From Aequorivita sp. UBA3180 (GTDB taxonomy: Bacteria > Bacteroidota > Bacteroidia > Flavobacteriales > Flavobacteriaceae), in NCBI GenBank assembly GCA_002364215.1, contig DEXQ01000018.1, positions 183,287 to 247,286 of the forward strand: DNA of 64,000 nt. The letters run 5' to 3'. Position numbers and translations under genes: made by a program. Each line of letters starts with the position of its first letter. Within the stretch, counting starts at the first letter, position 1. Shown in pieces: positions 4,768 through 62,884 of the stretch. The notes beneath the pieces are model-generated. The model was given only the letters and a program-made list of their open reading frames with translations. It searched no databases and was not told the DNA's origin.

Positions 4768-4781
4768 ATGACTTTAGTCAT
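4768..4781 (+). promoter_or_regulatory. FNR-like box upstream of hpf-usp
   Basis: ATGAC-TTTA-GTCAT; TATATTTG at 4804 (22-bp gap). Confidence 0.8.
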
Positions 4782-4837
4782 TTTAAAACCCACAAATTCT
4801 GGATATATTTGAGATGTATAAAAAAATTAAGAGTATC

Positions 4838-5137
4838 ATGACTATAAACATTCAGTATGTGAAAATGCCCACCAGTGAGGCGATGAACGAATATGTTGAA
4901 AAAAAACTTCAAAAACTTGCAGAAAAGTATGAGTGGCTTATTAGAGCCGATGTAAGTTTTAAGTTGGAAAACAACGTTTACGGCAAAGGCAATATATGTG
5001 AAATGGAACTGAGCCTTCCGGGACCTAAAATTTTTGCAACATCAAAAGAGGCAACTTTTGAAGCGGCCGCAAAAGAAACAATTTCAGACCTTGAAAAACA
5101 GCTTAAAAAGCGCAAGGCAAAATTCACAACACACTAA
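4838..5137 (+). CDS. hpf: Ribosome hibernation promoting factor / RaiA family (short form)
   Basis: MTINIQ...SEAMNEYVEKKLQKL...C.....LPG..IFA......FEAA..E....LEKQL.KRK. The ATG at 4838 is preferred over 4814 because of the promoter position. Confidence 0.85.
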   Translation: MTINIQYVKMPTSEAMNEYVEKKLQKLAEKYEWLIRADVSFKLENNVYGKGNICEMELSLPGPKIFATSKEATFEAAAKETISDLEKQLKKRKAKFTTH

Positions 5138-5149
5138 AAACCAGTACAG

Positions 5150-5986
5150 ATGAAAAAAATATTAGTCCCCGTAGATTTTTCCGACCATTCAGAATATGCG
5201 TTGGAAGTAGCTGCTAACATTGCAAAAAAGCAAAATGCCGAAATCGTTGCGGTACATATGATGGGTCTTAGTGACGCAGTTTTAACGCGCGATGAAAGCA
5301 AGGAAGTTTTTGAGGCGATGTTTTATATGAAACTTGCAGAAAAGCGTTTTGCCGAATTCCTTGACAAAGAATACCTAAAAGGAATTACGGTTACCGATGC
5401 GGTCCACAATTATAAAATTTTTAGTGAATTGAATGATGTGGCCCGAGATTTTGGAGCAGATTTAATAGTAATGGGATCTCACGGAAGTTCCGGTTTAAAA
5501 GAGGTTTTCGTAGGAAGTAACACAGAAAAAGTAGTGCGCACTTCCGAAATACCTGTTTTGGTAATAAAGCACCGTCATGAAAATTTCAATCCAGAATTTG
5601 GGGTGTTCGCCTGCGACTTTTTGGAAAACTCAATAGGACCGTACAAGCGCGCCCAAAAAATGTTTGATGCTTTGGGGATAGAGATGCAAACGCTTTATGT
5701 AAACCTAGCAGGCGATTTCCGCAGCACCCGTGAAATTGAAAAAAGAATCCTCGGGTTTTTGAAAAGCGCAGGAGAGGCAAACCCACTTGAAACACTGAAC
5801 AAAGTAGCACAGTACAATGAATATTCTGTAGAAGCTGGAATTTTTGGCTACAGCCAAGTAAGTAATGCCGATATTATTGCATTGCCTACGCAAGGCCGTC
5901 AAGGTTTGGCACATTTCTTTTCTGGAAGTATAGGCGAAGATGTAGTAAACCATTCTGACTTGCCGGTAATGACTTTTAAAGTTTAG
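5150..5986 (+). CDS. Universal stress protein (tandem USP domains)
   Basis: MKKILVPVDFS, DLIVMGSHGSSG...GSNTEKVVR...PVLVI. Confidence 0.95.
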   Translation: MKKILVPVDFSDHSEYALEVAANIAKKQNAEIVAVHMMGLSDAVLTRDESKEVFEAMFYMKLAEKRFAEFLDKEYLKGITVTDAVHNYKIFSELNDVARDFGADLIVMGSHGSSGLKEVFVGSNTEKVVRTSEIPVLVIKHRHENFNPEFGVFACDFLENSIGPYKRAQKMFDALGIEMQTLYVNLAGDFRSTREIEKRILGFLKSAGEANPLETLNKVAQYNEYSVEAGIFGYSQVSNADIIALPTQGRQGLAHFFSGSIGEDVVNHSDLPVMTFKV

Positions 5987-6016
5987 TTAATTGCTATCGA
6001 CATCAATTAACGATGA

Positions 6017-6054
6017 AAGAGCAGAAATTTCGTAGATGGGTTTCTGCTTTTTTT
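6017..6054. terminator. Bidirectional terminator between convergent usp and deoD
   Basis: agcagaaa / tttctgct stem with an A run before and a T run after. Confidence 0.65.
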
Positions 6055-6057
6055 ATT

Positions 6058-7414: not shown

Positions 7415-7716
7415 TAATTTTTGTGTTGATTGATGATGGAAACCAAATCGTTTTTCTGCAGGACGCCACTTTGTCGCCAAAGTTGCTTGCCGTTTTTGAA
7501 TAGAATCATCGTTGGCACCCCGCGCACTTGGAATTGCGCGGCCAAGGGTTGGTTTTTGTCAACATCTATTTTTACGATTTTTACGGCATCGCCCAATTCG
7601 TCTTTCACCTGTTTTAGGATGGGGGCAAGCATTTTGCAGGGGCCGCACCAATCTGCAAAAAAGTCAACCAATACGGGAGTATTGGAATTGATTATGTCTT
7701 TGAAGTTGCTTTTCAT
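7414..7716 (-). CDS. trxA: Thioredoxin
   Basis: VDFFADWCGPCKM, KIDVD, VRGVPT. Confidence 0.93.
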   Translation of the reverse strand: MKSNFKDIINSNTPVLVDFFADWCGPCKMLAPILKQVKDELGDAVKIVKIDVDKNQPLAAQFQVRGVPTMILFKNGKQLWRQSGVLQKNDLVSIINQHKN

Positions 7717-8710: not shown

Positions 8711-9115
8711 TTAATTTTCCAACAGCATTTTTAATTTTGCAAGCATAATCACTTCACTTTTGTTCTTTGCTGCAAAGGAACTGGCAATAGCGTTTGCTGT
8801 CTTCCAGATTAGATCCTTTCGTTCTTTGGTGAAAAGCTTGGGGTTCTCTTTTTTATAATCTGCAAAACTCTCAAAACAATCGCTTGCGTCAAGCTGTTCG
8901 TAGTCAAACCAATCAAATACAACTTCTATCTGGTATGCGGCATCTGAATGGAAGGGATCCTCATAATCGTCCAGGTTTTTCCATTGTTCCGCCACAATGT
9001 TTTTCAAAATATCATATTCTGCTTTCCGCACCACTTTGTCCGCCGCGGCAATGGCGTAAAAAAGTTCGCCCATTTTTTGATAAAACAGGAGTTGAGGTTT
9101 ATCAACGGTTCCCAT
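8711..9115 (-). CDS. TerB-like protein
   Basis: LFYAIAAADKVVRKAE matches the TerB AADG....E motif. Confidence 0.6.
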   Translation of the reverse strand: MGTVDKPQLLFYQKMGELFYAIAAADKVVRKAEYDILKNIVAEQWKNLDDYEDPFHSDAAYQIEVVFDWFDYEQLDASDCFESFADYKKENPKLFTKERKDLIWKTANAIASSFAAKNKSEVIMLAKLKMLLEN

Positions 9116-9174
9116 ATTCTTTAATTTAATGATTCTTAAAGGTGTAAAACTAAATAGTTTTCAAACGAAATTTT

Positions 9175-9188
9175 ATGATAAAAATCAG
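9175..9188 (-). promoter_or_regulatory. FNR-like box in the divergent terB-like / kinase promoter
   Basis: Minus strand CTGAT-TTTT-ATCAT with TAGTTTTA (9145-9152) at a 22-bp gap. On the plus strand TACTTTTG (9213) is at 24 bp. Confidence 0.7.
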
Positions 9189-9224
9189 TTCCAAAAAACT
9201 GTTTAAAATCCTTACTTTTGGGGG

Positions 9225-10460
9225 ATGAAGGTTTTTGAGGGAAAAAAAGGCAATATTTTTAAGATTCTTTCCGAAGCAATATCGGAAGGTATTGTGATAG
9301 TTAACGAAAACCAGGAAATTGTGACCTCAAATGAAGCTGCAGACCGCATGTTTGGTTATGAAGCAAAGGAACTTTTGGGAGAAAATATAAACTTGCTGAT
9401 TCCTCGAGAGTATAGGCACAGCCATACCGAACAGGTTGAGGAATACTTGGAAAAGAGCGATCCGCGCCAAATGGGCCACGGGCGTGATCTTTACGGCCGG
9501 CGCAAGGACGGTAGCGTTTTTCCGGTGGAAGCGGGCTTGAACCCCTTTGAAATTTATGGCAGTAAATATGTAATGGCGCTAGTAACCGATATTACCGTTC
9601 GTAAAACCCAAGAGAAGGAAATTATAGAGCTCAACCTGCATTTGGAGCAAAAAGTGGAGGCGCGAACCAAAGAACTTAAGCAAACAATAAAAGAGTTAAA
9701 GGAGGAAGTTTCAAAACGCAAGGAAGCAGAATATAAAATCATGGAATCGCTTCGAAAAGAAAGAGAGCTCAACGAATTGAAAACGAAATTCCTCTCGTTG
9801 GTTTCCCATGAGTTCAAGACGCCTTTAAGCGGTATTCTTACTTCAGCTACCCTTGTGGGGAAATATACAGAGACAGAGCATCAGGAAAAGCGCGAAAAGC
9901 ATTTAAGAACTATTCAAAATAAAGTGAAATACCTGAATAATATTTTGAACGATTTCCTTTCTATTGAACGTTTAGAGTCTGGCAAGGCTACTTATAAATT
10001 TGATGTCTTCCCGCTGAGCAAAGTAGTGAACGAAGTGATTTATAACGCAAATATGCTTTTGAAGGATGGCCAGCGTATAAATTATCCACAGAACATAGAC
10101 GATATTTTGGTGAATTTTGATGAAAAGATCCTTGAATTATCACTTACCAATCTTATAAACAATGCCATAAAATATTCGCCAGCACACACAGTTATAGATG
10201 TAGTGGTAATTCCACAAAAAGATTCCTTGAGTATAAAAATTATAGATGAAGGGATGGGTATTCCCGAAAAGGAACAGAAATATATTTTCAATAGGTATTT
10301 CCGTGCAGAAAACGCTCTGCTAGACCAAGGCACAGGTATTGGTCTGAATATTGTGAAAAGCCATTTGGAAAGCCTAGATGGTACAATTACCTTTGAAAGC
10401 GAACAGAGCAAAGGCAGTACGTTTACAATTACCTTTCCCACAAATAACAATACAAATTAG
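9225..10460 (+). CDS. PAS-domain sensor histidine kinase, FixL-like heme PAS
   Basis: PAS LIPREYRHSHTEQVEEYL...DPRQMGHGRDLYGRRKDG; HisKA SHEFKTPL; HATPase NLINNAIKYS, DEGMGIP, GTGIGL. Confidence 0.9.
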   Translation: MKVFEGKKGNIFKILSEAISEGIVIVNENQEIVTSNEAADRMFGYEAKELLGENINLLIPREYRHSHTEQVEEYLEKSDPRQMGHGRDLYGRRKDGSVFPVEAGLNPFEIYGSKYVMALVTDITVRKTQEKEIIELNLHLEQKVEARTKELKQTIKELKEEVSKRKEAEYKIMESLRKERELNELKTKFLSLVSHEFKTPLSGILTSATLVGKYTETEHQEKREKHLRTIQNKVKYLNNILNDFLSIERLESGKATYKFDVFPLSKVVNEVIYNANMLLKDGQRINYPQNIDDILVNFDEKILELSLTNLINNAIKYSPAHTVIDVVVIPQKDSLSIKIIDEGMGIPEKEQKYIFNRYFRAENALLDQGTGIGLNIVKSHLESLDGTITFESEQSKGSTFTITFPTNNNTN

Positions 10461-10461
10461 C

Positions 10462-11514
10462 ATGAAGACAATACTTCTTATTGAAGACGATACCGCATTA
10501 AGAGAAAATACAGCTGAACTTTTGGAGCTTTCCGGCTATACCGTTTTTACCGCACCCAATGGTAAAATTGGCATTGAAAGAGCAAAAAAGGAAAACCCGA
10601 GCATCATTGTTTGTGACATAATGATGCCAGAAATTGACGGCTATGGAGTACTTGAAAGTGTAGCTTCGGAAGAAAAAACGAAGCATATCCCTTTTATCTT
10701 TCTTTCGGCAAAAACGGAGCACAAAGAAATTCGCAAAGGTATGGATATGGGGGCGGACGACTACCTTACCAAACCATTTGACGAAGAGGAGTTGTTAAGT
10801 GCCGTAGAAAGCCGTTTGGCAAAAGCGAGTATTTTGGCAATGCGCAAGAACAATAAAGTTGCGGAGACCGATGAGGGTGATGAAAACCCACAGAACCTGA
10901 ACCAGTTGAAAAACTTTTTTTGTGATGAAGGCGAAGTGTCCAATTATAAAAAAGGAGAAACCGTTTACCAAAAAGGTGACCACTCCAACAGTATGTTCCT
11001 AATCTTGAAAGGGGTTGTGAAAACACATACGATGGACGCCAATGCGAAAGAGTTAATTACAGGGCTATACAAAGCCGATGACTTTTTGGGTTTCACTTCT
11101 TTTGACGATAACATTCCCTATAATGAAACCGCTACAGCTGTGGAAGACACTGAAGTTGTGGGAATTTCAAAAACCTATGTGAAGGATATTCTGAAAAAAA
11201 GCCAAGATGTTTCCTTAGAATTGATGAATCTTTTAACCGATAATCTTTCTGAAATAAAGCAGCAATTGGTTAAAATGGCCTACAGCTCCGTTCGGAAAAA
11301 AACGGCCAGCACCATTCTTCAATTTGTGGAGATTATGGACAAAAAACCGGATGCGCCCCTTCGCATCTCACGCAATGACCTTGCTACAACTGCCGGAATT
11401 GCTACCGAAAGCTTGATAAGAACCCTTTCAGATTTCAAAAAAGATGGTATTATTGAAATTGAAGGCCGCGATATTCGCATCGTAGATTTGGATGGTCTTC
11501 GTGATATAAACTAA
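10462..11514 (+). CDS. Response regulator with REC + cNMP-binding + Crp/Fnr HTH domains
   Basis: ILLIEDD, CDIMMP, FLSAK, YLTKPF; then YKKGETVYQKGD..LILKG.VK and ISRNDLATTAGIATESLIRTLSDF. ATG at 10462 follows the kinase stop. Confidence 0.92.
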   Translation: MKTILLIEDDTALRENTAELLELSGYTVFTAPNGKIGIERAKKENPSIIVCDIMMPEIDGYGVLESVASEEKTKHIPFIFLSAKTEHKEIRKGMDMGADDYLTKPFDEEELLSAVESRLAKASILAMRKNNKVAETDEGDENPQNLNQLKNFFCDEGEVSNYKKGETVYQKGDHSNSMFLILKGVVKTHTMDANAKELITGLYKADDFLGFTSFDDNIPYNETATAVEDTEVVGISKTYVKDILKKSQDVSLELMNLLTDNLSEIKQQLVKMAYSSVRKKTASTILQFVEIMDKKPDAPLRISRNDLATTAGIATESLIRTLSDFKKDGIIEIEGRDIRIVDLDGLRDIN

Positions 11515-11539: not shown

Positions 11540-11553
11540 CTGATTTTTATCAT
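11540..11553 (+). promoter_or_regulatory. FNR-like box upstream of usp
   Basis: CTGAT-TTTT-ATCAT; TAATTTTG at 11576 (22-bp gap). Confidence 0.8.
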
Positions 11554-11602
11554 TTTCTGTACCGACCTATAAAGATAATTTTGTCGGTAAGATTATGATG
11601 CT

Positions 11603-12442
11603 ATGATGAACGTATTGATCCCGACGGATTTTTCTGAAAATTCACACAACGCCATTAAGTATGCGCTGACATATTTTTCTGACGTTGCCGTTAATTTTTA
11701 TATTCTTCATGTCTCACCTAAAAATTCAGATTACAAAGAAGAAGAACAACACAGGTTTTCAGATTTTGAGGCTGAGATGCAGACAGTCCAGAGTACTTCC
11801 GTTTTATTAAAGGAAGAAATAAAGACATGCCAGTTTCAGTCCAAGAACCAAGCTCATAAATTCCTTCCCCTGCAGGAAAACATGAATTTGGTGGAAGCCA
11901 TTAGGAAGCAAGTGGCTGAAAAGGAAATAGACTATATTTTAATGGGCACCAAGGGCACTTCAAAATCCAATAGAAGTGAATTGGGAAGCAACACTTGTGA
12001 TGTAATTACTAAGGTAAAATGTCCCATACTTGTAATTCCCGAACATGCAAGGTTCAATGGCATTAAAAACATTGCTTTCTTAACGGATTATAATTGCATT
12101 TACCGCAACAAGGTAATCTCTTCGCTTTCTGAAACGTTGGATTTGCACCGTTCACCACTGCGAGTGCTTCACATAAAAGCGCGAAATAGTGATCTTACCG
12201 CATCACAAACTGACAACAAAGGGTTTTTACATTACTTTTTCAAAGATAAAAAGCACAGTTTCCATTTTGTTGAAAACAAAGACTTGGAAATAGGCATTCA
12301 GGATTTTGTAGAAACCTGGGAAATTAGTCTTGTTTCCATCGTGGCCAAAAACCTTAATCTTATACAAAGACTTTTATTGCGTCCTACGCTAAAATCTGTT
12401 AGTTACACTGCAGATGTGCCCTTTTTGGTACTTCATGAATAG
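11603..12442 (+). CDS. Universal stress protein (tandem)
   Basis: VLIPTDFSENS, ILMGTKG, GSNTCDVITKVKCPILVIP. Confidence 0.93.
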   Translation: MMNVLIPTDFSENSHNAIKYALTYFSDVAVNFYILHVSPKNSDYKEEEQHRFSDFEAEMQTVQSTSVLLKEEIKTCQFQSKNQAHKFLPLQENMNLVEAIRKQVAEKEIDYILMGTKGTSKSNRSELGSNTCDVITKVKCPILVIPEHARFNGIKNIAFLTDYNCIYRNKVISSLSETLDLHRSPLRVLHIKARNSDLTASQTDNKGFLHYFFKDKKHSFHFVENKDLEIGIQDFVETWEISLVSIVAKNLNLIQRLLLRPTLKSVSYTADVPFLVLHE

Positions 12443-12791: not shown

Positions 12792-12805
12792 TTGATATTT
12801 GTCAT
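12792..12805 (+). promoter_or_regulatory. FNR-like box upstream of the usp-usp-usp-ATPcone-MBL operon
   Basis: TTGAT-ATTT-GTCAT; TATCTTTA at 12828 (22-bp gap). Confidence 0.78.
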
Positions 12806-12859
12806 ATTTTAACTCTACTGTAATGGTTATCTTTACGTAATTATTTTAAAGAGTTTGCT

Positions 12860-14584: not shown

Positions 14585-15436
14585 ATGAAAAAGCGAATAT
14601 TAATACCCACAGATTTTTCAAGAAACGCATGGAATGCAATAAAATATGCCATGGAGCTCTATAAGAGGGAATATGTGGAGTTTTTCATATTGCACACCTA
14701 TTACCTTTCAGGGTATTCAAAAGAAAACCTATTGAGTCCTGAACCTACGGAAAAAGATCTAAAAAAAGTTCAGGAAGCTTCAGAGAAAGACATGGAGAAG
14801 CTGAAGGTGCAAATGGGTTTCTATGAAGAAAATGACAACCACACATTTCAATATATGAGTGAATTTGGCTCGTTCTTCGATGTGATGAAAAAGACTGTGG
14901 AAAAGCAGGACATAGAATTGGTAGTTATGGGAACCCAAGGAGAGACGGACAATAAAACCGTTATTTTGGGCAGTAACGCAGTAAATGCAATGGAAAAAAT
15001 TAGAAATTGCCCAGTGCTTGCCATTCCTTCAAATGTGTTATTCAAAGATCCGAATGAAATTGTATTTCCCACTAGCTTTAGAACACATTACAAAGAAAAG
15101 GAATTGGCTACTTTAGTAGAAATTTCACGCTGCACTAACTCCCCAATCCGTATTTTGCATATTCAAAAAGGAAAAAATCTTTCAAAATCGCAACTGGAAA
15201 ATAAAGCTTTGTTGGAAAAAATTCTGGAAGCTGCCAATTACACCCATCATACCCTATACGACATCGAGATTAATGACGGCGTACGCTGTTTCGTGCAAAG
15301 CCGACAGAGCGAGATGATTGCCATTGTAAACAAGAAGCACAATTTCTTTGGAAGTGTATTTTCAAATCCGATGGTCAAAGAACTCGGCAAGCACAGTAAC
15401 GTGCCACTTTTGGCGATGCACGATTTAAGAAATTGA
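14585..15436 (+). CDS. Universal stress protein (tandem)
   Basis: ILIPTDFSRNA, LVVMGTQG, GSNAV..M.K...CPVLAIP. Confidence 0.95.
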   Translation: MKKRILIPTDFSRNAWNAIKYAMELYKREYVEFFILHTYYLSGYSKENLLSPEPTEKDLKKVQEASEKDMEKLKVQMGFYEENDNHTFQYMSEFGSFFDVMKKTVEKQDIELVVMGTQGETDNKTVILGSNAVNAMEKIRNCPVLAIPSNVLFKDPNEIVFPTSFRTHYKEKELATLVEISRCTNSPIRILHIQKGKNLSKSQLENKALLEKILEAANYTHHTLYDIEINDGVRCFVQSRQSEMIAIVNKKHNFFGSVFSNPMVKELGKHSNVPLLAMHDLRN

Positions 15437-16287
15437 GCAAAATGTCAAAAAATCATCAGGATATTGAAGTAATAAAACATTCAGGCCAAAAGGCGAAGTT
15501 TTCAATTGAAAAACTAAAAGGCTCGCTACGGAAAAGCGGCGCGGATGAAGCATTGGTCAACGAAATTGCAAATAACGTCCGCGATGAGCTTTATCAGGGT
15601 ATTTCAACTAAAGAAATCTACAATCGTGCCTTTGCGCTTCTCAAAAAAAAGAAAAAAGGCTACGCTTCAAAATATAAGTTGAAAAAAGCAATTTACGAGC
15701 TTGGTCCCACAGGTTTTCCTTTTGAAAAATTTGTTGGGGCAATCCTTTTTTACAGTGGTTATGAAGTAAAGACAGGGCAGTTTTTACAGGGAAAATGCGT
15801 AACCCACGAAGTAGATGTGGTAGCGCATAAAAACGGACAGTATGTTGTGGCTGAGTGTAAATTCCATAGTGATGAGGGGCGTAATTGTGATATAAAAGTT
15901 CCACTCTATATACATTCCCGCTATCGCGACATTCTCAATTTTTACGCCAATAGTAACAATGGTGAAAAACCAAACGAAGGTTGGGTAGTTACCAATACCC
16001 GTTTTACCGAAGATGCCATAAAATATGGGGAATGCGTTGGCCTCCACCTTTTAAGCTGGGATCTTCCGAAAGATAATGGTATCAAGGACCGTATAGACCG
16101 TTTGGGACTCTATCCTGTTACCGTTTCCACCTTACTAAGTCAGCGAGAGAAACAGTTTTTGCTCAGCCGTGATGTAGTGCTCTGCAAGCAATTGATAAAT
16201 GATCATTTCTATTTGGACCATTTGGGAATTTCAGAAAAAAGAAAAGAGAGGATATTAAATGAGATTGAACAATTATGCAAAAAATAA
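15433..16287 (+). CDS. ATP-cone domain + Mrr-like PD-(D/E)xK restriction endonuclease domain protein (copy 1)
   Basis: N-terminal VIKHSG....F..EKL..SL..SG (ATP cone); C-terminal FEKFV..IL...GY, HEVDVVA, AECKFH. Confidence 0.8.
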   Translation: MSKMSKNHQDIEVIKHSGQKAKFSIEKLKGSLRKSGADEALVNEIANNVRDELYQGISTKEIYNRAFALLKKKKKGYASKYKLKKAIYELGPTGFPFEKFVGAILFYSGYEVKTGQFLQGKCVTHEVDVVAHKNGQYVVAECKFHSDEGRNCDIKVPLYIHSRYRDILNFYANSNNGEKPNEGWVVTNTRFTEDAIKYGECVGLHLLSWDLPKDNGIKDRIDRLGLYPVTVSTLLSQREKQFLLSRDVVLCKQLINDHFYLDHLGISEKRKERILNEIEQLCKK

Positions 16288-17645
16288 AAATCCATTTCCT
16301 CGGTGCAGCGGGAACCGTAACGGGTTCGAAATATTTAATTGAAACTTCTGAAAAGAATATTTTAATAGACTGTGGCATGTTTCAGGGTCTAAAGGAATTG
16401 CGCGAAAAGAATTGGGAGTATTTGCCTATAGATGTTTCAACGATAGATATAGTACTTTTAACACACGGCCATTTAGACCATACGGGCTATTTGCCGCGAT
16501 TGGTAAAACAAGGTTTCCGCGGAAAGATAATCGGAACTGCACCAACACTGGCAATTACTAAAATAATTTTGCTGGACAGTGCCAAAATCCACGAAGAAGA
16601 AGCTGAAAGAGCGAATGAAGGAGGCTATTCCAAACACAAACCCGCCGAGCCGTTTTATAGTGGTGAAGAAGCTGAGGTTACATTAGGTTTTTTCCATGCT
16701 GAAGAAAAAGATAAATGGATTAAACTTTCAGAAAATATACAATATCGGTTTCGGTATAACGGGCATATTATTGGTGCTACTTTCATTGAGCTGGAAATTT
16801 TCGGAAAAATATTTGTCTTTTCGGGTGATATTGGTCGTGAGCACGATTTATTGCTTTCCCCGCCCGAAAAACCGCAATGGGCAGACTATCTTTTTATGGA
16901 AAGCACTTACGGAAACAAATTGCATCCAAAGGAAAGCGTTACGGATAAATTGGTTGAACTCATCACGAAAACCATTCACAACCGCGGCAATTTGATAATT
17001 CCTTCCTTTGCGGTGGAACGCTTACAGACGCTGATGTTTTTACTTTGGAAATTGTATAACGAAAATAAAATTCCAAACATCCCAATTTTTATTGATAGTC
17101 CGATGGGCAATAATGTACTTTCGGTATTTCAAAATTTTCCGGATTGGCACAAACTGCCGATGAAGGATTTTAACGCAATGAACAACCGGATGAATATTAT
17201 TACTTCCTATAAGGAAACTTGGGAAACCATTGACAATCCGCAGCCGAAAGTTGTTATTGCAGGTAGTGGAATGGTTACCGGCGGAAGGGTTCTTACTTAT
17301 TTGAAACAGATGATTGATAAGACAAATACGACCGTTTTATTGGTAGGCTACCAAGCCGAAGGAACCCGAGGAAGACAACTTTTGGAAGGTGCGTATGAGT
17401 TGAAATTCTTTGGAAAATACTATCCCGTAAAAGCTGAAGTCCATCATATAGAAAGTCTTTCAGCCCACGCTGACCAGCAGGGACTTTTGGATTGGACGAG
17501 CAAAATAAAAAATATACCCGAAGAAGTATTTCTAATTCACGGCGAGCCTACGGCGCAGGATGCTTTTCGGGTGAAATTGCATGATACCTATGGATGGAAT
17601 GTAACCATTCCGATGTTATATGAAATAAAGGAGATTGTGATTTAA
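16275..17645 (+). CDS. MBL-fold beta-CASP hydrolase (RNA-processing family)
   Basis: FLGAAGTVTGS, THGHLDH, FSGDIG, MESTYG, PSFAVER, SAHAD, IHGE. Confidence 0.92.
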   Translation: MQKIKIHFLGAAGTVTGSKYLIETSEKNILIDCGMFQGLKELREKNWEYLPIDVSTIDIVLLTHGHLDHTGYLPRLVKQGFRGKIIGTAPTLAITKIILLDSAKIHEEEAERANEGGYSKHKPAEPFYSGEEAEVTLGFFHAEEKDKWIKLSENIQYRFRYNGHIIGATFIELEIFGKIFVFSGDIGREHDLLLSPPEKPQWADYLFMESTYGNKLHPKESVTDKLVELITKTIHNRGNLIIPSFAVERLQTLMFLLWKLYNENKIPNIPIFIDSPMGNNVLSVFQNFPDWHKLPMKDFNAMNNRMNIITSYKETWETIDNPQPKVVIAGSGMVTGGRVLTYLKQMIDKTNTTVLLVGYQAEGTRGRQLLEGAYELKFFGKYYPVKAEVHHIESLSAHADQQGLLDWTSKIKNIPEEVFLIHGEPTAQDAFRVKLHDTYGWNVTIPMLYEIKEIVI

Positions 17646-29645: not shown

Positions 29646-29659
29646 TTGATTTATATCAT
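29646..29659 (+). promoter_or_regulatory. FNR-like box upstream of lipoprotein gene
   Basis: TTGAT-TTAT-ATCAT; TAAGTTTA at 29682 (22-bp gap). Confidence 0.75.
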
Positions 29660-29780
29660 TCCTACAAGTGAAGAAATACCTTAAGTTTATTGCCTCTTTT
29701 GTAATTACTTAATAATTAGAAAAAGAGAAGCGTATATTTACATATCCTTCTGAAGAATTAACTTTTTAAAAAATAATAGT

Positions 29781-30413
29781 ATGCAAAAATTATTGGTCAT
29801 AACAATTTTTGTCACGTTACTTTCCGGGTGTTCCAGCAGCCGTTTGGTTGATGAATACATAAATACAGAAGCGCCAAATTTTCAGGCCAATAAAGTTTTG
29901 GTGGTTGGGTTAACACCAGACGCAGTTTTGCAGCGCCAATTTGAATATAGTCTTTCGCAAGCTTTGGAAGCCGAAGGGGTGATTACCGTAAAAAGTGTTG
30001 AATATTTTGAAAGTACCTTCTCAGAAAACAATCAAACGGAAGAAAATTTAAAAAGCATAGAAAATGAACTTTTAAATGCAGGTTTTGATGCGGTGCTTTT
30101 TTCAAAAGTTACGGGGCAGGAAAGCAAGGTAACCATTGGGCAATCTTATAGAAATCTTGCAAAATCCTTTGAGTCATTCAGTGATTATTATAATGAAAAT
30201 AGGCCTGTGTATGGCAATGAGCAGATTGAAGACTACCCAGTTTATAATACCGAAACCTCTTTGTATTGTCTCTGCCCCGGCAAGGAGCGTGATTTAATCT
30301 GGCGAGGAAAGATAGACATTGTCAATCCGCCGGGAGCTGCATCCACCATTCGTGATTATGTAAAAACAATTGTGCAAACGCTTAAAAGGAATAATCTTCT
30401 AATTTTATTGTGA
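29781..30413 (+). CDS. Lipoprotein of unknown function (DUF4136-like)
   Basis: Lipobox LSGC; alpha/beta domain ending ETSLY.L......LIW.G. Confidence 0.7.
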   Translation: MQKLLVITIFVTLLSGCSSSRLVDEYINTEAPNFQANKVLVVGLTPDAVLQRQFEYSLSQALEAEGVITVKSVEYFESTFSENNQTEENLKSIENELLNAGFDAVLFSKVTGQESKVTIGQSYRNLAKSFESFSDYYNENRPVYGNEQIEDYPVYNTETSLYCLCPGKERDLIWRGKIDIVNPPGAASTIRDYVKTIVQTLKRNNLLILL

Positions 30414-31247: not shown

Positions 31248-31294
31248 CTTTTTTTGAATTTCTTCAAAATTAATTTTTAGACGTGATATCTAAA

Positions 31295-31308
31295 ATGATT
31301 TTCCTCAT
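31295..31308 (-). promoter_or_regulatory. FNR-like box for minus-strand usp
   Basis: Minus strand ATGAG-GAAA-ATCAT; TAATTTTG at 31265-31272 (22-bp gap). Confidence 0.72.
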
Positions 31309-31403: not shown

Positions 31404-31417
31404 ATGACAAAAATCAT
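31404..31417 (+). promoter_or_regulatory. FNR-like box for the nos operon
   Basis: ATGAC-AAAA-ATCAT; TAATTTTG at 31440 (22-bp gap). Confidence 0.82.
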
Positions 31418-31471
31418 ATTATATCTATTCCTTGAGTACTAATTTTGTCACGTAAATTAATCTTAACAACT

Positions 31472-38926: not shown

Positions 38927-38940
38927 ATGACTTTGGTCAT
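38927..38940 (+). promoter_or_regulatory. FNR-like box upstream of 600-aa gene
   Basis: ATGAC-TTTG-GTCAT; weak -7 element CACCTTTA at 38963 (22-bp gap). Confidence 0.72.
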
Positions 38941-38998
38941 ACTATAAAACTTTTTGAATCATCACCTTTACCGCATTTTCAATCCAAATTCTTTTTAA

Positions 38999-41100: not shown

Positions 41101-41114
41101 ATGATAATGGTCAT
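41101..41114 (+). promoter_or_regulatory. FNR-like box for the nor operon
   Basis: ATGAT-AATG-GTCAT; TTATTTTG at 41137 (22-bp gap). Confidence 0.78.
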
Positions 41115-41148
41115 AAATCATTTTTTGTGAATGTTTTTATTTTGCTAT

Positions 41149-48191: not shown

Positions 48192-50246
48192 TTACCCAAC
48201 CCGCACCCGAGCATCAACGGCAACTATATTTTTCTGGGTGCCAATCAACGGATTGATGTCCATTTCGGTAATTTCCGGGGCGGCCTCCACCAAAGCCGAA
48301 AGCCGTTGGATGATTTCCACAAACTGGTTTTCGTCAACGCCCTCTCGGCCCCGCGCACCTTGAATGAGTTTATACCCGCGAAGCGATTGTACCATTTGCT
48401 GCGCTTCGTTATTTGAAATAGGGCTTAAACCCGCCGAAATATCGTTCAGCACTTCTATAAAAATCCCACCCAAACCGCATAGAATGGTGTGGTTGAAACC
48501 GGGCTCCTTCATTACGCCCACAAACAGTTCCAGTCCCGCCAGTTGCGGCTGCACCATTACGGCAGTGGCCGAATCTATTTTCATCAGTAAATCGAAAGTT
48601 TCGGCGGCTTCAGTTTCGTTGGCTATATTTAAAACCACGCCTTGCGCATCACTTTTATGGAGCGGGCCAACCACTTTCATCACTACGGGAAAGTCTGTTG
48701 CTTCCATAGCTGCAAGCAATTTTTCTTTTGAATTTTCTACAATTTCATGAACCCGCGGAATGCCAGCCGAATCCAATAAAGCTACAGATTGTTTGGGAGA
48801 TAGATATCCGTCAGTCGCGGCATCAATGATTTTTCTAATGCCTATAACATCAATTTTTGGCAGTGATATTTTTTGAGATTGCGGGTCGGGCGTATTATAA
48901 ACTTGTGAAAGCGCCTTTCCCAAAACCACTTCATCGGGAAAATGAATGTGCCCCTTCTTTAGAAATGATTGAATTTCGCGCTGTGCATTTACAACGGAAG
49001 GCAAAACGGGAAAAATTGGTTTGTTGCAGATTTCGAGTTTTACGCTTAAAACGTTGTACACATTTTCAACATCAAAAAGGCCCGCACTTCCAAAAACTAC
49101 GACCATAGCATCTATAGAATCAAATTTATGCTCGCAATAATCTATAATGATGCCCAACTGCTCGGCGGTACCGGTTGCCAAAAAGTCTATGGGATTTGCA
49201 ATTGAAGAACCGGGATAAAGAAACGATTTTAATTTTTCTGCGTCGGGTCCTGAAATTTCGGGAACTTTTAATCCACCTTTTGAAAGCTGGTCTGCCAACA
49301 TTACCGCCGAACCACCTGCATGGGTGATAATGGCAATATTCTTCCCCTTTAATTTTTTATAGTTGAAAATAGCCGCCACGCTCAACAATTGTTCTCTACT
49401 GCTGCAATACACAATTCCAGCTTTGTTGAACAGGGCGCGCACCGTCATATCGCTACTGGCAATGGCGCCCGTGTGCGAAGTGGCGGCACGGCTGCCCTCG
49501 GCGGTGCTTCCTGCTTTTATGGCCGCTATTTTCGCGCCTTTTTTTATGAGGGAAGACGCGTGTTTCAGCAATTTTTGCGGATTGGAAATGGTTTCCAAAT
49601 AAAGCAATTTTATAAGCGGATCTTTTTCAGCATCAAAATGATCGTCCATATATTCCAAAATATCCTCAACGCTGGTCTGTGCGGCATTCCCGACGGAAAA
49701 AACGTTGGCAAAAGTAACGCCTAGCGACATTCCCGCCTCCATAATAAAAACCGCCGTTGCGCCCGAACCCGAAATAAGGTCGCAGCCTTTTGGATTGAAA
49801 GGCGGCACCGGGGCGGTAAAAACACCCTTATAATTTTTGGTTATAACCCCAATGCAGTTTGGACCAATTAGGCAACCATTAACCGAATCGACCGTCGAAA
49901 CTATCTGCTGTTCCCATTTTTTTCCCTGTTCACCAGCTTCGCCAAAACCTGCGGAAATTATTATAAAAGCTTTCGTATTCTTTTCTTCAGCTAAAATATT
50001 TACAGTTTCGGGACAGTATTTTGCGGGAATGGCAAGAATGGCAAGGTCGGTTTGGGGAATTTCATTTACTTCAGCATAACTTTTTATGCCCTGAACCTTT
50101 TCCTCCTTGGGGTTAACAACATACAATTCTCCACCGAAATTCCCTGAAATTATATTTTTCAGCATATTGCCGCCAGGTTTTGTGGAGTCGTTGGAAGCGC
50201 CGATTATAGCGATGCTTTTTGGGTTAAGAAGTTGTTTGTTAACCAT
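48192..50246 (-). CDS. ADP-forming acetate/acyl-CoA ligase (single chain, CoA-binding + ATP-grasp)
   Basis: PKSIAIIGAS, IGPNCIG, SHTGAIAS, NPIDF, PVVMKV....HKSD..GV, EMDINP. Confidence 0.9.
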   Translation of the reverse strand: MVNKQLLNPKSIAIIGASNDSTKPGGNMLKNIISGNFGGELYVVNPKEEKVQGIKSYAEVNEIPQTDLAILAIPAKYCPETVNILAEEKNTKAFIIISAGFGEAGEQGKKWEQQIVSTVDSVNGCLIGPNCIGVITKNYKGVFTAPVPPFNPKGCDLISGSGATAVFIMEAGMSLGVTFANVFSVGNAAQTSVEDILEYMDDHFDAEKDPLIKLLYLETISNPQKLLKHASSLIKKGAKIAAIKAGSTAEGSRAATSHTGAIASSDMTVRALFNKAGIVYCSSREQLLSVAAIFNYKKLKGKNIAIITHAGGSAVMLADQLSKGGLKVPEISGPDAEKLKSFLYPGSSIANPIDFLATGTAEQLGIIIDYCEHKFDSIDAMVVVFGSAGLFDVENVYNVLSVKLEICNKPIFPVLPSVVNAQREIQSFLKKGHIHFPDEVVLGKALSQVYNTPDPQSQKISLPKIDVIGIRKIIDAATDGYLSPKQSVALLDSAGIPRVHEIVENSKEKLLAAMEATDFPVVMKVVGPLHKSDAQGVVLNIANETEAAETFDLLMKIDSATAVMVQPQLAGLELFVGVMKEPGFNHTILCGLGGIFIEVLNDISAGLSPISNNEAQQMVQSLRGYKLIQGARGREGVDENQFVEIIQRLSALVEAAPEITEMDINPLIGTQKNIVAVDARVRVG

Positions 50247-50334
50247 TTTGTATAAAGATGATTTTAAAATAAAAATATTAGGAAAAACATTGGTTCGCCA
50301 AAAGCGAAATTAAAAGATGTTTTAGTCCTAAAAA

Positions 50335-50348
50335 CTGATATTTATCAT
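50335..50348 (+). promoter_or_regulatory. FNR-like box, possibly bidirectional
   Basis: CTGAT-ATTT-ATCAT; TATTTTTA at 50371 (+, 22-bp gap) and TAATTTCG at 50305-50312 (-, 22-bp gap). Confidence 0.78.
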
Positions 50349-50400
50349 ATTTCAGGCAAGAGTGATAGGGTATTTTTACGACCAAATAATTCAATTTGAA

Positions 50401-55395: not shown

Positions 55396-55409
55396 CTGAC
55401 CAAAGTCAT
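55396..55409 (+). promoter_or_regulatory. FNR-like box upstream of CoA transferase
   Basis: CTGAC-CAAA-GTCAT; AACCTTTG at 55432 (22-bp gap). Confidence 0.72.
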
Positions 55410-55454
55410 TTCAGGAACAGTTTAGATTCCCAACCTTTGACAAAAATTAAAATT

Positions 55455-56831: not shown

Positions 56832-57260
56832 ATGTTTTCAAAAGCTTGTGAATATGGTATTCGGGCCGTTCTATTTATAGCAAAACAATCTCAAAAAGAT
56901 TTGCGACCAAATATCTCAGAAATATCCAAAGCAGTGGACTCACCGGAACCATTTACTGCCAAGGTTTGCCAACAACTTGCACGTGCGGGTATAATCTTAT
57001 CCAAAAAAGGGCCCAACGGTGGGTTTTATTTAGAAAAGAATTCGACCCTGCGATTGGCCGATATTGTTTCTGAAATAGATGGCGATCAAATATTTAACGG
57101 TTGTAGTCTCGGCTTACGCGAGTGCTCCTCGGAGCATCCCTGTCCCGTACACGATCAATTTATGGACGTACGCAACGGTTTAAGACAAATGTGCGAGAAT
57201 ACGTTGGTGATGGATCTTGCCAGTAATTTGGAAGAAGGCCAAACATTTTTAAAAGTTTAA
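56832..57260 (+). CDS. Rrf2 family regulator with Fe-S Cys motif (NsrR/IscR-like)
   Basis: MFSKACEYGIRA, S.KGPNGGF.L, CSLGLRECSSEHPCPVH. Confidence 0.92.
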   Translation: MFSKACEYGIRAVLFIAKQSQKDLRPNISEISKAVDSPEPFTAKVCQQLARAGIILSKKGPNGGFYLEKNSTLRLADIVSEIDGDQIFNGCSLGLRECSSEHPCPVHDQFMDVRNGLRQMCENTLVMDLASNLEEGQTFLKV

Positions 57261-57269
57261 GACAGAAGT

Positions 57270-57662
57270 ATGACGACGGATATAATGAAATTGAATGATG
57301 TAAAGCATTTGGTAGATTCCTTTTATGGAAAAATACGGGAAGATATCCTATTGAAGGATATTTTCAACAATATAATCCAAGACCGCTGGCCCGAGCATCT
57401 TGAAAAAATGTATACCTTTTGGCAAACCGTTCTTTTGAGTGAGCATACTTATTACGGCAGCCCTTTCCCGCCCCATGCAAAAATGCCCATTGATAAAGAG
57501 CACTTTGACCGATGGTTACAATTATTCTTTGAAACCATCGATGAAAATTTTACGGGTGAAGTGGCCGAGGAAGCAAAATGGCGCTCATCTAAAATGGCCG
57601 AGATGTTTCAGTTTAAAATAAATTATATGCGTGAAAACTCAGGCTCTAAATACGTTCAATAA
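57270..57662 (+). CDS. Group III truncated hemoglobin
   Basis: LVDSFYGKIRED.LL..IF, W..HL.KMY.FW..VLL, Y.G.PF..H, F.RWL.LF. Confidence 0.92.
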   Translation: MTTDIMKLNDVKHLVDSFYGKIREDILLKDIFNNIIQDRWPEHLEKMYTFWQTVLLSEHTYYGSPFPPHAKMPIDKEHFDRWLQLFFETIDENFTGEVAEEAKWRSSKMAEMFQFKINYMRENSGSKYVQ

Positions 57663-58129
57663 TGGAAAAGAAAAAACCGATTAAAAGACACACTGCCTTA
57701 CAGCCCTTAAGCCGGCAGCATCATTTTGGGCTACTTTTCAGTTGGAAATTGCGCAAGGGTTTCAGCAAAAATATTGCTCCCGAAAGACTTCAAAAATATG
57801 CCGCTTGGTTTTTTGAGGAAGAAATAAAGCCTCATTTTGAAGCCGAGGAAAAGCATGTTTTTACGGTTTTGAATGAAGACAATGAGTTAATTGTCCGTGC
57901 CTTAAAAGAACACAGGCGAATAGAGCGCCTTTTTAAGGAAAACGAAAATCCTGAAAAATCCCTAAGCCAGTTGGAGGAAGAGCTCGATGCGCATATCCGT
58001 TTTGAGGAGCGTATTCTTTTTAATGAAATCCAAAAAGTAGCCACCGAAAGTCAACTCCAAAAAATTTCAGAAATCCATTCTGAAAATGTAACACCACCTG
58101 AATATTCTGATCCATTCTGGGAAAATTAA
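57662..58129 (+). CDS. Hemerythrin/HHE domain protein
   Basis: LSRQHH, PHFEAEE, EH..I, HIRFEER.LF. Confidence 0.88.
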   Translation: MEKKKPIKRHTALQPLSRQHHFGLLFSWKLRKGFSKNIAPERLQKYAAWFFEEEIKPHFEAEEKHVFTVLNEDNELIVRALKEHRRIERLFKENENPEKSLSQLEEELDAHIRFEERILFNEIQKVATESQLQKISEIHSENVTPPEYSDPFWEN

Positions 58130-58166: not shown

Positions 58167-58180
58167 ATGATTTAGGTCAT
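58167..58180 (+). promoter_or_regulatory. FNR-like box upstream of ric
   Basis: ATGAT-TTAG-GTCAT; GAAATTTG at 58203 (22-bp gap). Confidence 0.75.
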
Positions 58181-58240
58181 ATTTTGGGTGTGAATTTATG
58201 CTGAAATTTGCCCCATATTATTCATAAAAAGATATTTACC

Positions 58241-59088: not shown

Positions 59089-59098
59089 TTGAACCTTG

Positions 59099-60310: not shown

Positions 60311-60341
60311 AGTGAAAAACCTGCGATAATTAAGGTAAAAG

Positions 60342-60355
60342 CTGATAATTGTCAT
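60342..60355 (+). promoter_or_regulatory. FNR-like box upstream of ccoI
   Basis: CTGAT-AATT-GTCAT; AACCTTTG at 60378 (22-bp gap). Confidence 0.75.
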
Positions 60356-60415
60356 TTGGCGAAACCAAATCTCTTTCAACCTTTGCAACAGGTATAACGA
60401 GCAATTTTTTAATTG

Positions 60416-62821
60416 ATGGCAAACTGTTTCCATTGTGGTGATGCGTGTTTGGACGTTGAAATTAAACATGAGGAAAAATCCTTCTGCTGTCACGGCTGTA
60501 AGACGGTTTTTGATATTCTACACGACAACGATTTAAGTTACTATTACGATCTTGAAAAAACCCCGGGCATTTCCCCAAAGGAAATCGCCGGTAAATACGA
60601 TTTTCTCGACAATGAGGCCATTGTTGAAAAGTTACTGGAATTTAACGATGGCACTACCCAGATTGTTTCATTTTTAATTCCGTCGATACATTGCAGCAGT
60701 TGCATTTGGATATTGGAAAATCTGAATAAACTAAATCCTACCGTTACATCCTCACAAGTTAACTTTCCCGAAAAAACGGTACGGATTACTTTTTCTGCTG
60801 AAGAGAATTCGCTTAAAAATTTAGTGATTCTTTTAAGCCGAATAGGTTACGAACCCTATATTTCGCTGGAGGATTCCGAAAAAAAAGAAAAATATATCAA
60901 CCGAAGCCTGATCTACAAACTGGGCATTGCGGGATTTGCCTTTGGAAATATTATGTTCCTCTCATTTCCTGAATATTTTGAGCCTTCCGAATTCTGGCTG
61001 GACCAGTTTAAGCCGTTTTTCCGTTGGTTGATGTTTGCGTTTTCACTACCGGTGGTTTTTTACTCAGGGAGTGCGTATTTTACTTCGGCATACAAGGGGC
61101 TTCGTTCCAAAATCTTAAATATAGACGTCCCCATAGCTTTGGGAATTGCGGTTCTTTTTATACGAAGCACGATAGACATAGTATTCGACTTGGGCACAGG
61201 CTTTTTTGACAGTCTCTCTGGCTTGGTTTTCTTTTTATTATTGGGGAAATTTTTTCAGCAGAAAACCTATAGCTATCTTTCCTTTGAACGCGATTACAAA
61301 TCATACTTCCCGATTGCCGTTACACGACTTTTCAAAAATGCTGATGGAAATACCGTAGAAGAACAAGCTGAGGTTTACACCGTAAAAAAAGGCGACCGCT
61401 TGCTTATTCGCAACAATGAAATATTACCAGTGGATGCCATATTAATTAAAGGGAATGCGCTTATTGACTACAGTTTTGTAACTGGTGAAGCAGAACCTAT
61501 TACAAAACAAAGCGGCGACAAACTTTTTGCGGGCGGAAAGCAACAAGCCGGTATTTTGGAAGTGGAAGTTCTTAAACCCGTAGCCCAAAGCTACCTTACC
61601 CAACTGTGGAGCAACGACGTTTTCAGCAAGGATAAAACCGGCCTTTTTGAATCGATTACGGACAGTATCAGCAAACGATTTACGGTCGTTCTGCTTACCA
61701 TAGCATTTATTTCTACCATTTTTTGGCTTGTGGTCGATCCTTCCAAAGCCTTTAATGTGTTCACCTCGGTTTTAATTGTGGCCTGTCCGTGCGCCATTGC
61801 ACTTGCCGCGCCATTTACTTTGGGCAATGTGCTGCGCATTTTCGGAAGGGAAAAACTCTATTTGAAGGAAGCCTCAGTAATCGAACAAATGGCGAAGCTG
61901 GACACCGTTGTATTTGACAAAACGGGAACCCTCACTACCAACCAAAAAAATATGATTAGCTATGAAGGCATTGCGCTTTCAGAGGAAGAAAAGCAATTGC
62001 TCACGAGTACACTTCGGGCATCGAGCCATCCTTTGAGTCGCTCGCTTTACAATATGCTCGACAAAAATAATATCCAAACCTTGGATGAATTTGCAGAAGA
62101 AGTAGGGAAGGGGATTTCCGCAACTGCTAAAAACAATTCCATAAAAGTGGGATCCTATGAATTTGTGGGGTATTCTGATCAATTGACTTTCGAAGTAAAA
62201 AATAGAACCACGGTACACATCAGTGCAAATCAAGTTTACAAAGGCTGTTACATTTTTAACAGTGAGTACAGAAAAGGTGTTGCCGAAATTTTTGAACAAT
62301 TGGGTGCCAATAAAGATGTGGTTGTCCTTTCGGGCGACAACGAAGGCGAGCGTGAACGGCTTGAAGAATTACTGCCCAAAGGCACGAAACTATATTTCAA
62401 CCAAAAACCGGACGACAAGTTGAATTTTATAAAAACCCTTCAGCAAAAAGGAAAGCAGGTGCTTATGATTGGAGACGGTCTGAACGATGCAGGAGCGCTA
62501 AAACAGAGCAATGTAGGTTTTGTGATTTCAGAAAATACAAACGTTTTTTCACCAGCCTGTGATGGTATTTTGGATGCTTCACAGTTTCACAGAATTGGCG
62601 ATTTTTTAAATCTTTCCATTAAAGGTGTGAAAATCATAAAATGGGCGTTTTTATTTTCGCTATTTTACAATTTAATAGGTTTGGCATTTGCTGTTACAGG
62701 ACATTTAAAACCGGTAGTTGCGGCAATATTAATGCCTTTAAGCTCAATAAGCATTGTTGTTTTCACCACAGTTGCAACCCAATTTGTGGGAAAGAAATTA
62801 AGAACGGATATAAATAAGTAA
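60416..62821 (+). CDS. ccoI: Cu-translocating P1B ATPase for cbb3 oxidase assembly (CcoI/FixI)
   Basis: CFHCG, FCCHGC, CSSC, TGEA, ACPCA, DKTGT, GDGLND; adjacent to ccoS and ccoN. Confidence 0.9.
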   Translation: MANCFHCGDACLDVEIKHEEKSFCCHGCKTVFDILHDNDLSYYYDLEKTPGISPKEIAGKYDFLDNEAIVEKLLEFNDGTTQIVSFLIPSIHCSSCIWILENLNKLNPTVTSSQVNFPEKTVRITFSAEENSLKNLVILLSRIGYEPYISLEDSEKKEKYINRSLIYKLGIAGFAFGNIMFLSFPEYFEPSEFWLDQFKPFFRWLMFAFSLPVVFYSGSAYFTSAYKGLRSKILNIDVPIALGIAVLFIRSTIDIVFDLGTGFFDSLSGLVFFLLLGKFFQQKTYSYLSFERDYKSYFPIAVTRLFKNADGNTVEEQAEVYTVKKGDRLLIRNNEILPVDAILIKGNALIDYSFVTGEAEPITKQSGDKLFAGGKQQAGILEVEVLKPVAQSYLTQLWSNDVFSKDKTGLFESITDSISKRFTVVLLTIAFISTIFWLVVDPSKAFNVFTSVLIVACPCAIALAAPFTLGNVLRIFGREKLYLKEASVIEQMAKLDTVVFDKTGTLTTNQKNMISYEGIALSEEEKQLLTSTLRASSHPLSRSLYNMLDKNNIQTLDEFAEEVGKGISATAKNNSIKVGSYEFVGYSDQLTFEVKNRTTVHISANQVYKGCYIFNSEYRKGVAEIFEQLGANKDVVVLSGDNEGERERLEELLPKGTKLYFNQKPDDKLNFIKTLQQKGKQVLMIGDGLNDAGALKQSNVGFVISENTNVFSPACDGILDASQFHRIGDFLNLSIKGVKIIKWAFLFSLFYNLIGLAFAVTGHLKPVVAAILMPLSSISIVVFTTVATQFVGKKLRTDINK

Positions 62822-62823
62822 AA

Positions 62824-62837
62824 TTGACAAATGTCAT
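62824..62837 (+). promoter_or_regulatory. FNR-like box upstream of ccoS-ccoN
   Basis: TTGAC-AAAT-GTCAT; TAATTTTG at 62860 (22-bp gap). Confidence 0.8.
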
Positions 62838-62884
62838 ATTTTAAGGACCTTTGCAATAATAATTTTGAATACTAATTATCAGGT

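Follow-up and report, generated by a model that had tools for sequence, protein, structure and literature searches.

In a 64-kb window of the 3.2-Mb genome of Aequorivita sp. UBA3180 (C12:183287-247286; positions without a contig name count from the first base of this window), short FNR-type boxes at about fifteen promoters precede genes for the cbb3 oxidase, for the reduction of nitric oxide (NO) and nitrous oxide (N2O), and for universal stress proteins (USPs). These boxes appear to be sites for a class II activator of the Crp/Fnr family. Their binder is most probably a hybrid response regulator encoded in the same window, in which a receiver domain is joined to a Crp/Fnr module (REC-Crp), and which would act with a putative haem-PAS sensor kinase as a low-oxygen switch. 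We consider this reading likely, on the strength of sequence comparisons within the genome, across the family and with start sites mapped in a related species.

Box sequence and promoter position

A first look at the window, made from its letters alone (hereafter the sequence-only reading), had listed 14 boxes and described all of them as intergenic, with the RTCAT half facing the gene and a −7 promoter element, or at least its TTTG/TTTA in register, 22 bp further on. This observation is confirmed. The pattern HTGAY-N4-RTCAT (HTGAYNNNNRTCAT) matches the window 19 times when both strands are counted, at 14 distinct places. Dinucleotide-preserving shuffles of the window averaged 1.73 matches; their highest count was 6, and not one of the 100 shuffles reached 19. 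Thirteen of the listed boxes are exact matches, and the remaining one, at 31295(-), carries the single mismatch that had been stated for it. The fourteenth exact match, 14218(-), falls within a USP gene, and no −7 element follows it; we rejected it as a site, and it is probably due to chance. The other descriptions also held up: all 14 listed boxes are intergenic, and the RTCAT half points towards the gene at each of the eight boxes that are not palindromic. A full TAnnTTTR element starts exactly 22 nt past the box at nine of the 14 sites, and TTTR alone stands in the same register at five (Table 1). Predicted 5′ untranslated regions, measured from the predicted transcription start to the start codon, are 11-87 nt long.

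The same spacing recurs across genera. We collected 80 loci around homologues of the regulator, from Aequorivita, Aquimarina, Mesonia, Bizionia, Dokdonia, Sediminicola, Ulvibacter and others, which together contain 1024 boxes. TAnnTTTR lies exactly 22 nt downstream in 387 of them; the next offset, 24 nt, accounts for 34 cases, and every remaining offset for 12 or fewer. The fixed promoter position and the asymmetry of the half-sites, both proposed from the window alone, are thus features of the wider group: the core TGAY-N4-RTCA is invariant and flanked by H on its 5′ side, and RTCA is followed by T in 99% of sites. This outer base departs from the FNR consensus TTGAT-N4-ATCAA, of which the box, an inverted repeat, is a close variant. 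The 22-nt spacer carries no sequence information in the composite sites (box plus −7 element) of related loci. The boxes are therefore not copies of a repeat, and we rejected a mobile repeat cassette because the spacers are not conserved.

To place the boxes relative to transcription, we used a map of transcription start sites from Flavobacterium psychrophilum, which puts the sigma-A element TAnnTTTG at −12 to −5 (PMC9723704). With a 22-nt gap, this rule would put the 14-mer at −48 to −35, centred at −41.5, a position predicted here from the F. psychrophilum rule that corresponds to the class II geometry of FNR and CRP. No −33 TTTG element is present in the promoter region occupied by the box, and the promoters therefore look activator-dependent. 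The class II promoters of FNR and CRP in E. coli have the same distance of 22 nt between the box and the TA of their −10 hexamer.

Mapped examples of this layout exist, at least two among the Table S2 rows listed in PMC9723704. The start site T_0050, which belongs to a cytochrome c551/c552 gene, has ATGATATTTATCAT at −48 to −35, a gap of 22 nt and TACTTTTG at −12 to −5. It falls in expression cluster C52, which its authors describe as containing the hypoxia-induced cbb3 operon, hemN and a monohaem cytochrome c (PMC9723704). Start site T_0388, which adjoins T_0050 in the promoter-activity tree, shows the same order of box, 22 nt and −7-like element in Table S2, with the mapped start 2 nt closer. 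PMC9723704, which reports hypoxia induction of cbb3 and hemN in this fish pathogen, names neither a regulator nor a site.

Candidate regulator and competing explanations

The kinase and the REC-Crp hybrid are encoded next to each other in the window, the hybrid gene starting one base past the kinase end (10460 to 10462), and the kinase lies immediately upstream of REC-Crp in all 80 loci. The top PDB matches of the kinase PAS domain are all haem-PAS O2 sensors (DosP, E = 2.8e-20; FixL, E = 1.4e-17), and a His of the kinase aligns with the proximal His of DosP. These matches suggest a haem-PAS domain of the FixL/DosP-like type, predicted to bind haem. The receiver of REC-Crp matches Response_reg with E = 4e-29 and has D9/D10, D52, S82 and K104-P105, read from the sequence, as expected of a receiver domain. 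In the HTH_Crp_2 domain of the hybrid, the recognition helix (ATESLIRTL) retains the E and R from the E--SR motif of FNR. REC-Crp lacks the Cys cluster of FNR and has a single Cys in its Crp module. NCBIfam has no curated family that names this protein, all matches being below cut-off, and the PDB holds no full-length REC-Crp structure. In each of the 40 loci from other genera, composite sites occur no more than 10 kb from REC-Crp (mean 5.2 sites), mostly preceding genes for USPs, a 134-aa protein, a DUF3298 protein and hpf.

The pair also appears to control itself. The peak at 24 nt in the offset counts comes almost entirely from one promoter: 33 of its 34 cases are the box of the divergent region upstream of the kinase, read towards the kinase. 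The layout there is conserved as ATGAYnnnnATCAG, 24 nt and TACTTTTG, with the kinase start codon 4 nt past the −7 element; in the window, it was noted at 9189-9227. With the −7 element at −12 to −5, the kinase transcript would start on the A of its ATG. The kinase/regulator operon is thus predicted to be leaderless, dependent on the box and autoregulated, with one box common to this operon and the divergent 134-aa gene.

To examine whether the sites track the regulator, we counted the composite TGAYN4RTCA-N23-TANNTTTR in 201 Flavobacteriaceae genomes, about one per genus. A reversed control pattern occurred 0-2 times per genome, whereas the real pattern reached as many as 59 occurrences. Each genome was scored for the REC-Crp hybrid and for a stand-alone, Cys-rich FNR-like paralogue. 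This paralogue (loci L081-L090) has about 228 aa, begins MSKCEQC, conserves C4, C7, C53, C59 and C106, and has the helix GTATESAIRVL, nearly identical to that of REC-Crp. It is present in 119 of the 201 genera and was not found in the Aequorivita genome (G000) or its congener, so that REC-Crp is the sole protein in the Aequorivita genome with that recognition helix. The number of composite sites depends on both regulators: the median was 26 in the 47 genomes with both, 14 in the 43 with the hybrid only (each of which has at least 6), 10.5 in the 72 with the FNR-like protein only and 1 in the 39 with neither. Ordinary least squares across the 201 genera gave sites = 2.1 + 14.1 (hybrid, t = 12.2) + 10.2 (FNR-like, t = 8.8). 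Together with the rigid spacing and the predicted class II geometry, this association supports the proposal of the sequence-only reading that one Crp/Fnr-type activator works at a fixed promoter position.

In FNR-like-only genomes, the composite precedes hemN, ccoS, the nos cytochrome c gene, the gene for a 600-aa protein, rrf2 and a thioredoxin-like gene, and also genes that resemble, by eye, pfl, pta and nrfH. The ccoS and 600-aa-gene orthologues of genome G023 are boxed. In these other genera the same box presumably serves the Cys-rich FNR-like regulator, a likely O2-labile protein. In Aequorivita, REC-Crp appears to serve the classical FNR targets plus the USP/hpf set. The near-identical helices, and the lack of the FNR-like paralogue in Aequorivita, point to a replacement of one regulator by the other at unchanged cis-elements. 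The hybrid is also found in further families of the same class (41 of 301 genomes sampled across the phylum), and the composite is enriched in the class of Flavobacteriaceae and nearly absent from other classes. Genome G455, from another class of the phylum, has 32 composite sites compared with 0-3 in its neighbours, which could reflect transfer or a misplaced taxon.

From these comparisons we infer DNA binding and activation by REC-Crp, its control by phosphorylation, an O2 signal and a role in hypoxia in Aequorivita, which would combine as follows. A dimeric activator of the Crp/Fnr family would sit at −48 to −35 of sigma-A promoters that have a −7 element and lack a −33 element. The activator would be REC-Crp and its partner the co-transcribed FixL/DosP-like kinase. 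When O2 falls, the deoxy-haem kinase would autophosphorylate, as in FixL, and would in turn phosphorylate D52 of the receiver. The phosphorylated REC-Crp dimer would then bind TGAY-N4-RTCA(T) and recruit RNA polymerase. The genes switched on would be those for the cbb3 oxidase and its maturation, hemN, nor, nos and NO repair, together with acyl-CoA/ATP-yielding enzymes, NAD synthesis, HPF, six tandem USPs and the probably leaderless kinase/REC-Crp operon itself. The three-protein FixL-FixJ-FixK relay of rhizobia would thereby be cut to two proteins.

Several observations weigh against this model. At five of the 14 sites the −7 element is only partial, the site-regulator statistics ignore kinship among genera, and 6-10 sites occur even in 5 of the 39 genomes that lack both regulators, four of these five being incomplete assemblies. 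A second Crp paralogue, at C15:226086-226670, also has an E..IR helix. The proximal His column is Y or F in 10 of 78 kinase orthologues (loci L053, L065, L069, L077 and others, with ~52-54% identity to the window kinase); haem sensing is therefore not universal in this kinase family, and some lineages with a Y/F kinase may sense a different signal. The cNMP-like domain of REC-Crp might bind an unknown ligand, and a haem-PAS domain could sense NO, carbon monoxide (CO) or redox state and not O2.

The last of these points gives rise to an alternative in which REC-Crp binds the boxes while the kinase responds to NO, CO, redox state or a metabolite, and the genes form a nitrosative or general-stress regulon. 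In its favour, genes for a globin, a hemerythrin and an Rrf2 regulator lie in the island along with nor and ric, NO and CO are also ligands of haem-PAS domains, and some kinase orthologues lack the proximal His. However, the cbb3 oxidase, ccoI/S and hemN are classical low-O2 targets, and in F. psychrophilum their orthologues and the box-bearing cytochrome c gene are induced by O2 limitation, according to the cluster description in PMC9723704. In the FNR-like-only genera, moreover, the same box serves a Cys-rich and presumably O2-labile regulator. We regard a signal other than O2 as unlikely. Somewhat less probable still is that another Crp/Fnr paralogue binds the boxes, either the protein at C15:226086-226670 or the one at C15 ~351.4-351.9 kb, a weak Crp-like open reading frame (ORF), leaving REC-Crp in control of at most its immediate neighbours. 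The protein at C15:226086-226670 (195 aa) has the helix RVETVIR, whose E..IR core is common with REC-Crp, and its orthologue is found in G130 and G187, two of the five outliers that have 6-10 sites but neither main regulator. Yet orthologues occur in just 42 of the 201 genera and also in genomes with only 1-3 sites (G053, G091, G200), its coefficient for site counts was −1.8 and not significant, and no composites lie near its gene, whereas they cluster around REC-Crp in every locus from other genera. We rejected this protein as the main binder because the site counts show no association with it. A further Crp paralogue, at C12:152688-153320, was rejected as the main binder because its helix, TSRVVVSRLL, is NtcA/HcpR-like and has no E..R. 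This gene, which lies outside the window and is the third Crp-family gene of the island, has a CAMTLTCC motif and adjoins a cytochrome c gene.

The boxes might instead be repressor operators over the −35 region of constitutive promoters, as a protein at −48 to −35 would also occlude RNA polymerase. We think this very improbable, given that the −33 TTTG element is missing where the box sits, that a single rigid spacing with RTCAT nearest the promoter fits contact between protein and polymerase, and that the predicted geometry is the one known from class II activation by FNR and CRP. TTTR is common in AT-rich spacers, and a purely compositional origin of the pattern in AT-rich intergenic DNA might be supposed on that account, but the shuffles, the reversed control and the single sharp peak of the offset histogram refute it, and we give it practically no weight.

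Beyond the proposed class II activation by REC-Crp with its haem-PAS kinase, we lean slightly towards a wider claim. REC-Crp would be FixJ and FixK in one polypeptide, a phosphorylation-gated class II activator that works with the Bacteroidota sigma-A at −7-only promoters. In Aequorivita it would have taken over the whole cis-regulatory network of an ancestral Fe-S FNR, with the boxes conserved, and in marine Flavobacteriaceae it would be a family-wide hypoxia/dormancy switch that controls the clade II N2O reductase.

Predicted target genes in and beyond the window

Gene identities were assigned from Pfam and NCBIfam domain matches (Table 1). Pfam confirmed the identities given in the sequence-only reading, namely hpf, the USPs, nos, nor, the nor-like/nad operon, the CoA enzymes, ric and cco. 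The target set, with ccoS/N, ccoI, hemN, nor and nos, is typical of FixK/FNR regulons.

Table 1. Boxes, −7 elements and genes in the window. Full, TAnnTTTR; partial, TTTR in register; the gap from box to −7 element is 22 nt unless given.
Feature	Position	Strand	Sequence	−7 element	−7 position	Genes or domains
Box	4768-4781	+	ATGACTTTAGTCAT	full, TATATTTG	4804-4811	hpf and tandem USP gene 5150-5986
Box, shared and divergent	9175-9188	-	CTGATTTTTATCAT	full, TAGTTTTA	9145-9152	134-aa gene 8711-9115 without known function, then DUF3298, deoC and PNP genes
Same box, other strand	9175-9188	+	ATGATAAAAATCAG	24 nt, TACTTTTG	9213-9220	kinase, ATG at 9225
Sensor histidine kinase	9225-10460	+				PAS-HisKA-HATPase_c (Pfam)
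REC-Crp hybrid response regulator, 350 aa	10462-11514	+				Response_reg, cNMP_binding, HTH_Crp_2
Box	11540-11553	+	CTGATTTTTATCAT	full, TAATTTTG	11576-11583	USP gene 11603-12442
Box	12792-12805	+	TTGATATTTGTCAT	full, TATCTTTA	12828-12835	operon of three USP genes (12860, 13719, 14585), ending in ATP-cone/Mrr-like nuclease (15433) and beta-CASP hydrolase (16275-17645)
Box	29646-29659	+	TTGATTTATATCAT	full, TAAGTTTA	29682-29689	210-aa gene 29781-30413 without known function
Box, one mismatch	31295-31308	-	ATGAGGAAAATCAT	full, TAATTTTG	31265-31272	USP gene 30420-31247
Box	31404-31417	+	ATGACAAAAATCAT	full, TAATTTTG	31440-31447	operon of cytochrome c, fasciclin, nosZ (32668-34635), nosL, nosDFY
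Box	38927-38940	+	ATGACTTTGGTCAT	partial, CACCTTTA	38963-38970	600-aa gene 38999-40801 without known function
Box	41101-41114	+	ATGATAATGGTCAT	partial, TTATTTTG	41137-41144	norC, norB, norQ, norD, COX3-like gene
Box	50335-50348	+	CTGATATTTATCAT	full, TATTTTTA	50371-50378	cytochrome c, NorB-like COX1, nadA, nadB, thioredoxin-like
Same box, other strand	50335-50348	-		−7-like, TAATTTCG	50305-50312	ADP-forming acyl-CoA synthetase gene 48192-50246
Box	55396-55409	+	CTGACCAAAGTCAT	partial, AACCTTTG	55432-55439	acetyl-CoA hydrolase/CoA-transferase gene (to 56723)
Box	58167-58180	+	ATGATTTAGGTCAT	partial, GAAATTTG	58203-58210	ric/scdA (to 58966) and 404-aa gene without known function
Box	60342-60355	+	CTGATAATTGTCAT	partial, AACCTTTG	60378-60385	ccoI/fixI-type P-type ATPase gene 60413-62821
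Box	62824-62837	+	TTGACAAATGTCAT	full, TAATTTTG	62860-62867	ccoS/fixS (62885-63088), ccoN (63105 onward)

The predicted starts bear on the annotation of hpf. Its longest ORF runs from 4814, and the Pfam match begins at residue 11 of that frame. Because an ORF from 4814 would begin before its own predicted transcription start (~4816), the real hpf start is probably the ATG at 4838. The single box at 50335 may drive both the nor-like/nadAB operon and the divergent gene for the ADP-forming acyl-CoA synthetase. The genes for an Rrf2-type regulator, a truncated globin and a hemerythrin (56832-58129) have no box in the Aequorivita genome; the rrf2 orthologue in genome G023 is boxed (locus L094). The 3′ end of the three-USP operon (15433-17645), which encodes an ATP-cone protein with an Mrr_cat/AF1548-like nuclease domain and a beta-CASP/RMMBL hydrolase, brings together odd partners for stress proteins.

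The regulon extends past the window. In the whole genome, 13 boxes have a full TAnnTTTR at 22 nt, eight of them in the window, three just upstream on the same contig and two elsewhere. A scan of the whole genome with a position weight matrix placed nearly all of the ~25 best composite sites in C12 ~145-259 kb. The label 'window-wide' that the sequence-only reading had given to the regulon is therefore too narrow, as five of the 13 full composites fall outside the window and the matrix matches cluster over this longer interval. The predicted regulon thereby gains genes for a hemN-like radical-SAM protein, a porin, a P-type ATPase, an outer-membrane beta-barrel protein and an MlaE-like permease, as well as a few located elsewhere. 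A peptidase-U32 gene outside the window (C2:243015-244323) has a weaker composite, CTAACAAATATCAT, 22 nt and GACTTTTG. O2-independent hydroxylases are known among the U32 proteins, and such a function would suit an anaerobic regulon.

Relation to known systems

A full-text literature search found no FNR-type regulon or REC-Crp regulator described in Flavobacteriaceae, which is not proof of absence, and no account of O2 sensing or of nos, nor or cbb3 regulation in this family. A meta-regulon study treated Flavobacteriales Crp/Fnr homologues as MalR-like only (PMC8510549). If our reading is correct, marine flavobacteria would control genes of respiration, denitrification and a dormancy-type response through a low-oxygen switch that had not been described before. 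Members of the Flavobacteriaceae play a major part in the breakdown of marine particles and algal blooms, settings in which oxygen drops steeply, and the clade II nosZ that they carry acts as a sink for N2O, a greenhouse gas. What is gained is a cis-element (TGAY-N4-RTCAT, 22 nt, TAnnTTTG), a named regulator pair and a predicted regulon that can be scanned for in any genome of the family. The system would also show how, in nature, a receiver domain can gate a Crp/Fnr fold, and how class II activation can work with the unusual Bacteroidota sigma-A. It should be of interest for work on bacterial oxygen sensing, Bacteroidota transcription and N2O reduction.

Three characterized systems resemble parts of this arrangement. 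In Mycobacterium tuberculosis, the haem-based kinases DosS and DosT and the response regulator DosR induce numerous USPs and a factor for ribosome hibernation in response to hypoxia or NO. The USP/hpf arm of the Aequorivita regulon is similar to this, by analogy only. DosR differs in having a NarL-type output and another, 20-bp motif, its sensors use GAF and not PAS haem domains, and its regulon lacks a respiratory or denitrification arm. Class II promoters of E. coli FNR share with the Aequorivita promoters a 14-bp inverted repeat, the gap of 22 nt to the TA of the downstream element and, as predicted for Aequorivita, a centre at −41.5, and the two proteins share a recognition helix with conserved E and R. 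REC-Crp is nevertheless not FNR proper, as it has no N-terminal Cys cluster to ligate a [4Fe-4S] centre; in addition, Ile replaces the Ser of E--SR, and its signal would arrive by phosphotransfer.

The third system is the FixL-FixJ-FixK relay of rhizobia and Caulobacter, in which FixK boxes (TTGA-N6-TCAA) lie at about −41.5. Both systems would combine a haem-PAS kinase, a Crp/Fnr activator, a TGA-N6-TCA palindrome and a class II position, and their targets overlap in fixNOQP/cco, fixGHIS (ccoI, ccoS), hemN, nor, nos and USPs. They differ at the promoter, where Aequorivita uses the Bacteroidota sigma-A −7 element TAnnTTTG and not a −10/−35 pair, in the outer box positions (HTGAY...RTCAT here, TTGAT...ATCAA there), and in the predicted leaderless and autoregulated kinase/regulator operon. 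Unlike the rhizobial relay, moreover, Aequorivita has neither a FixJ, with its NarL/LuxR-type output, nor a separate fixK, as the receiver is fused directly to the Crp/Fnr module. The Aequorivita pair thus works like FixL-FixJ-FixK without being a member of that system, its one regulator standing where the relay has two.

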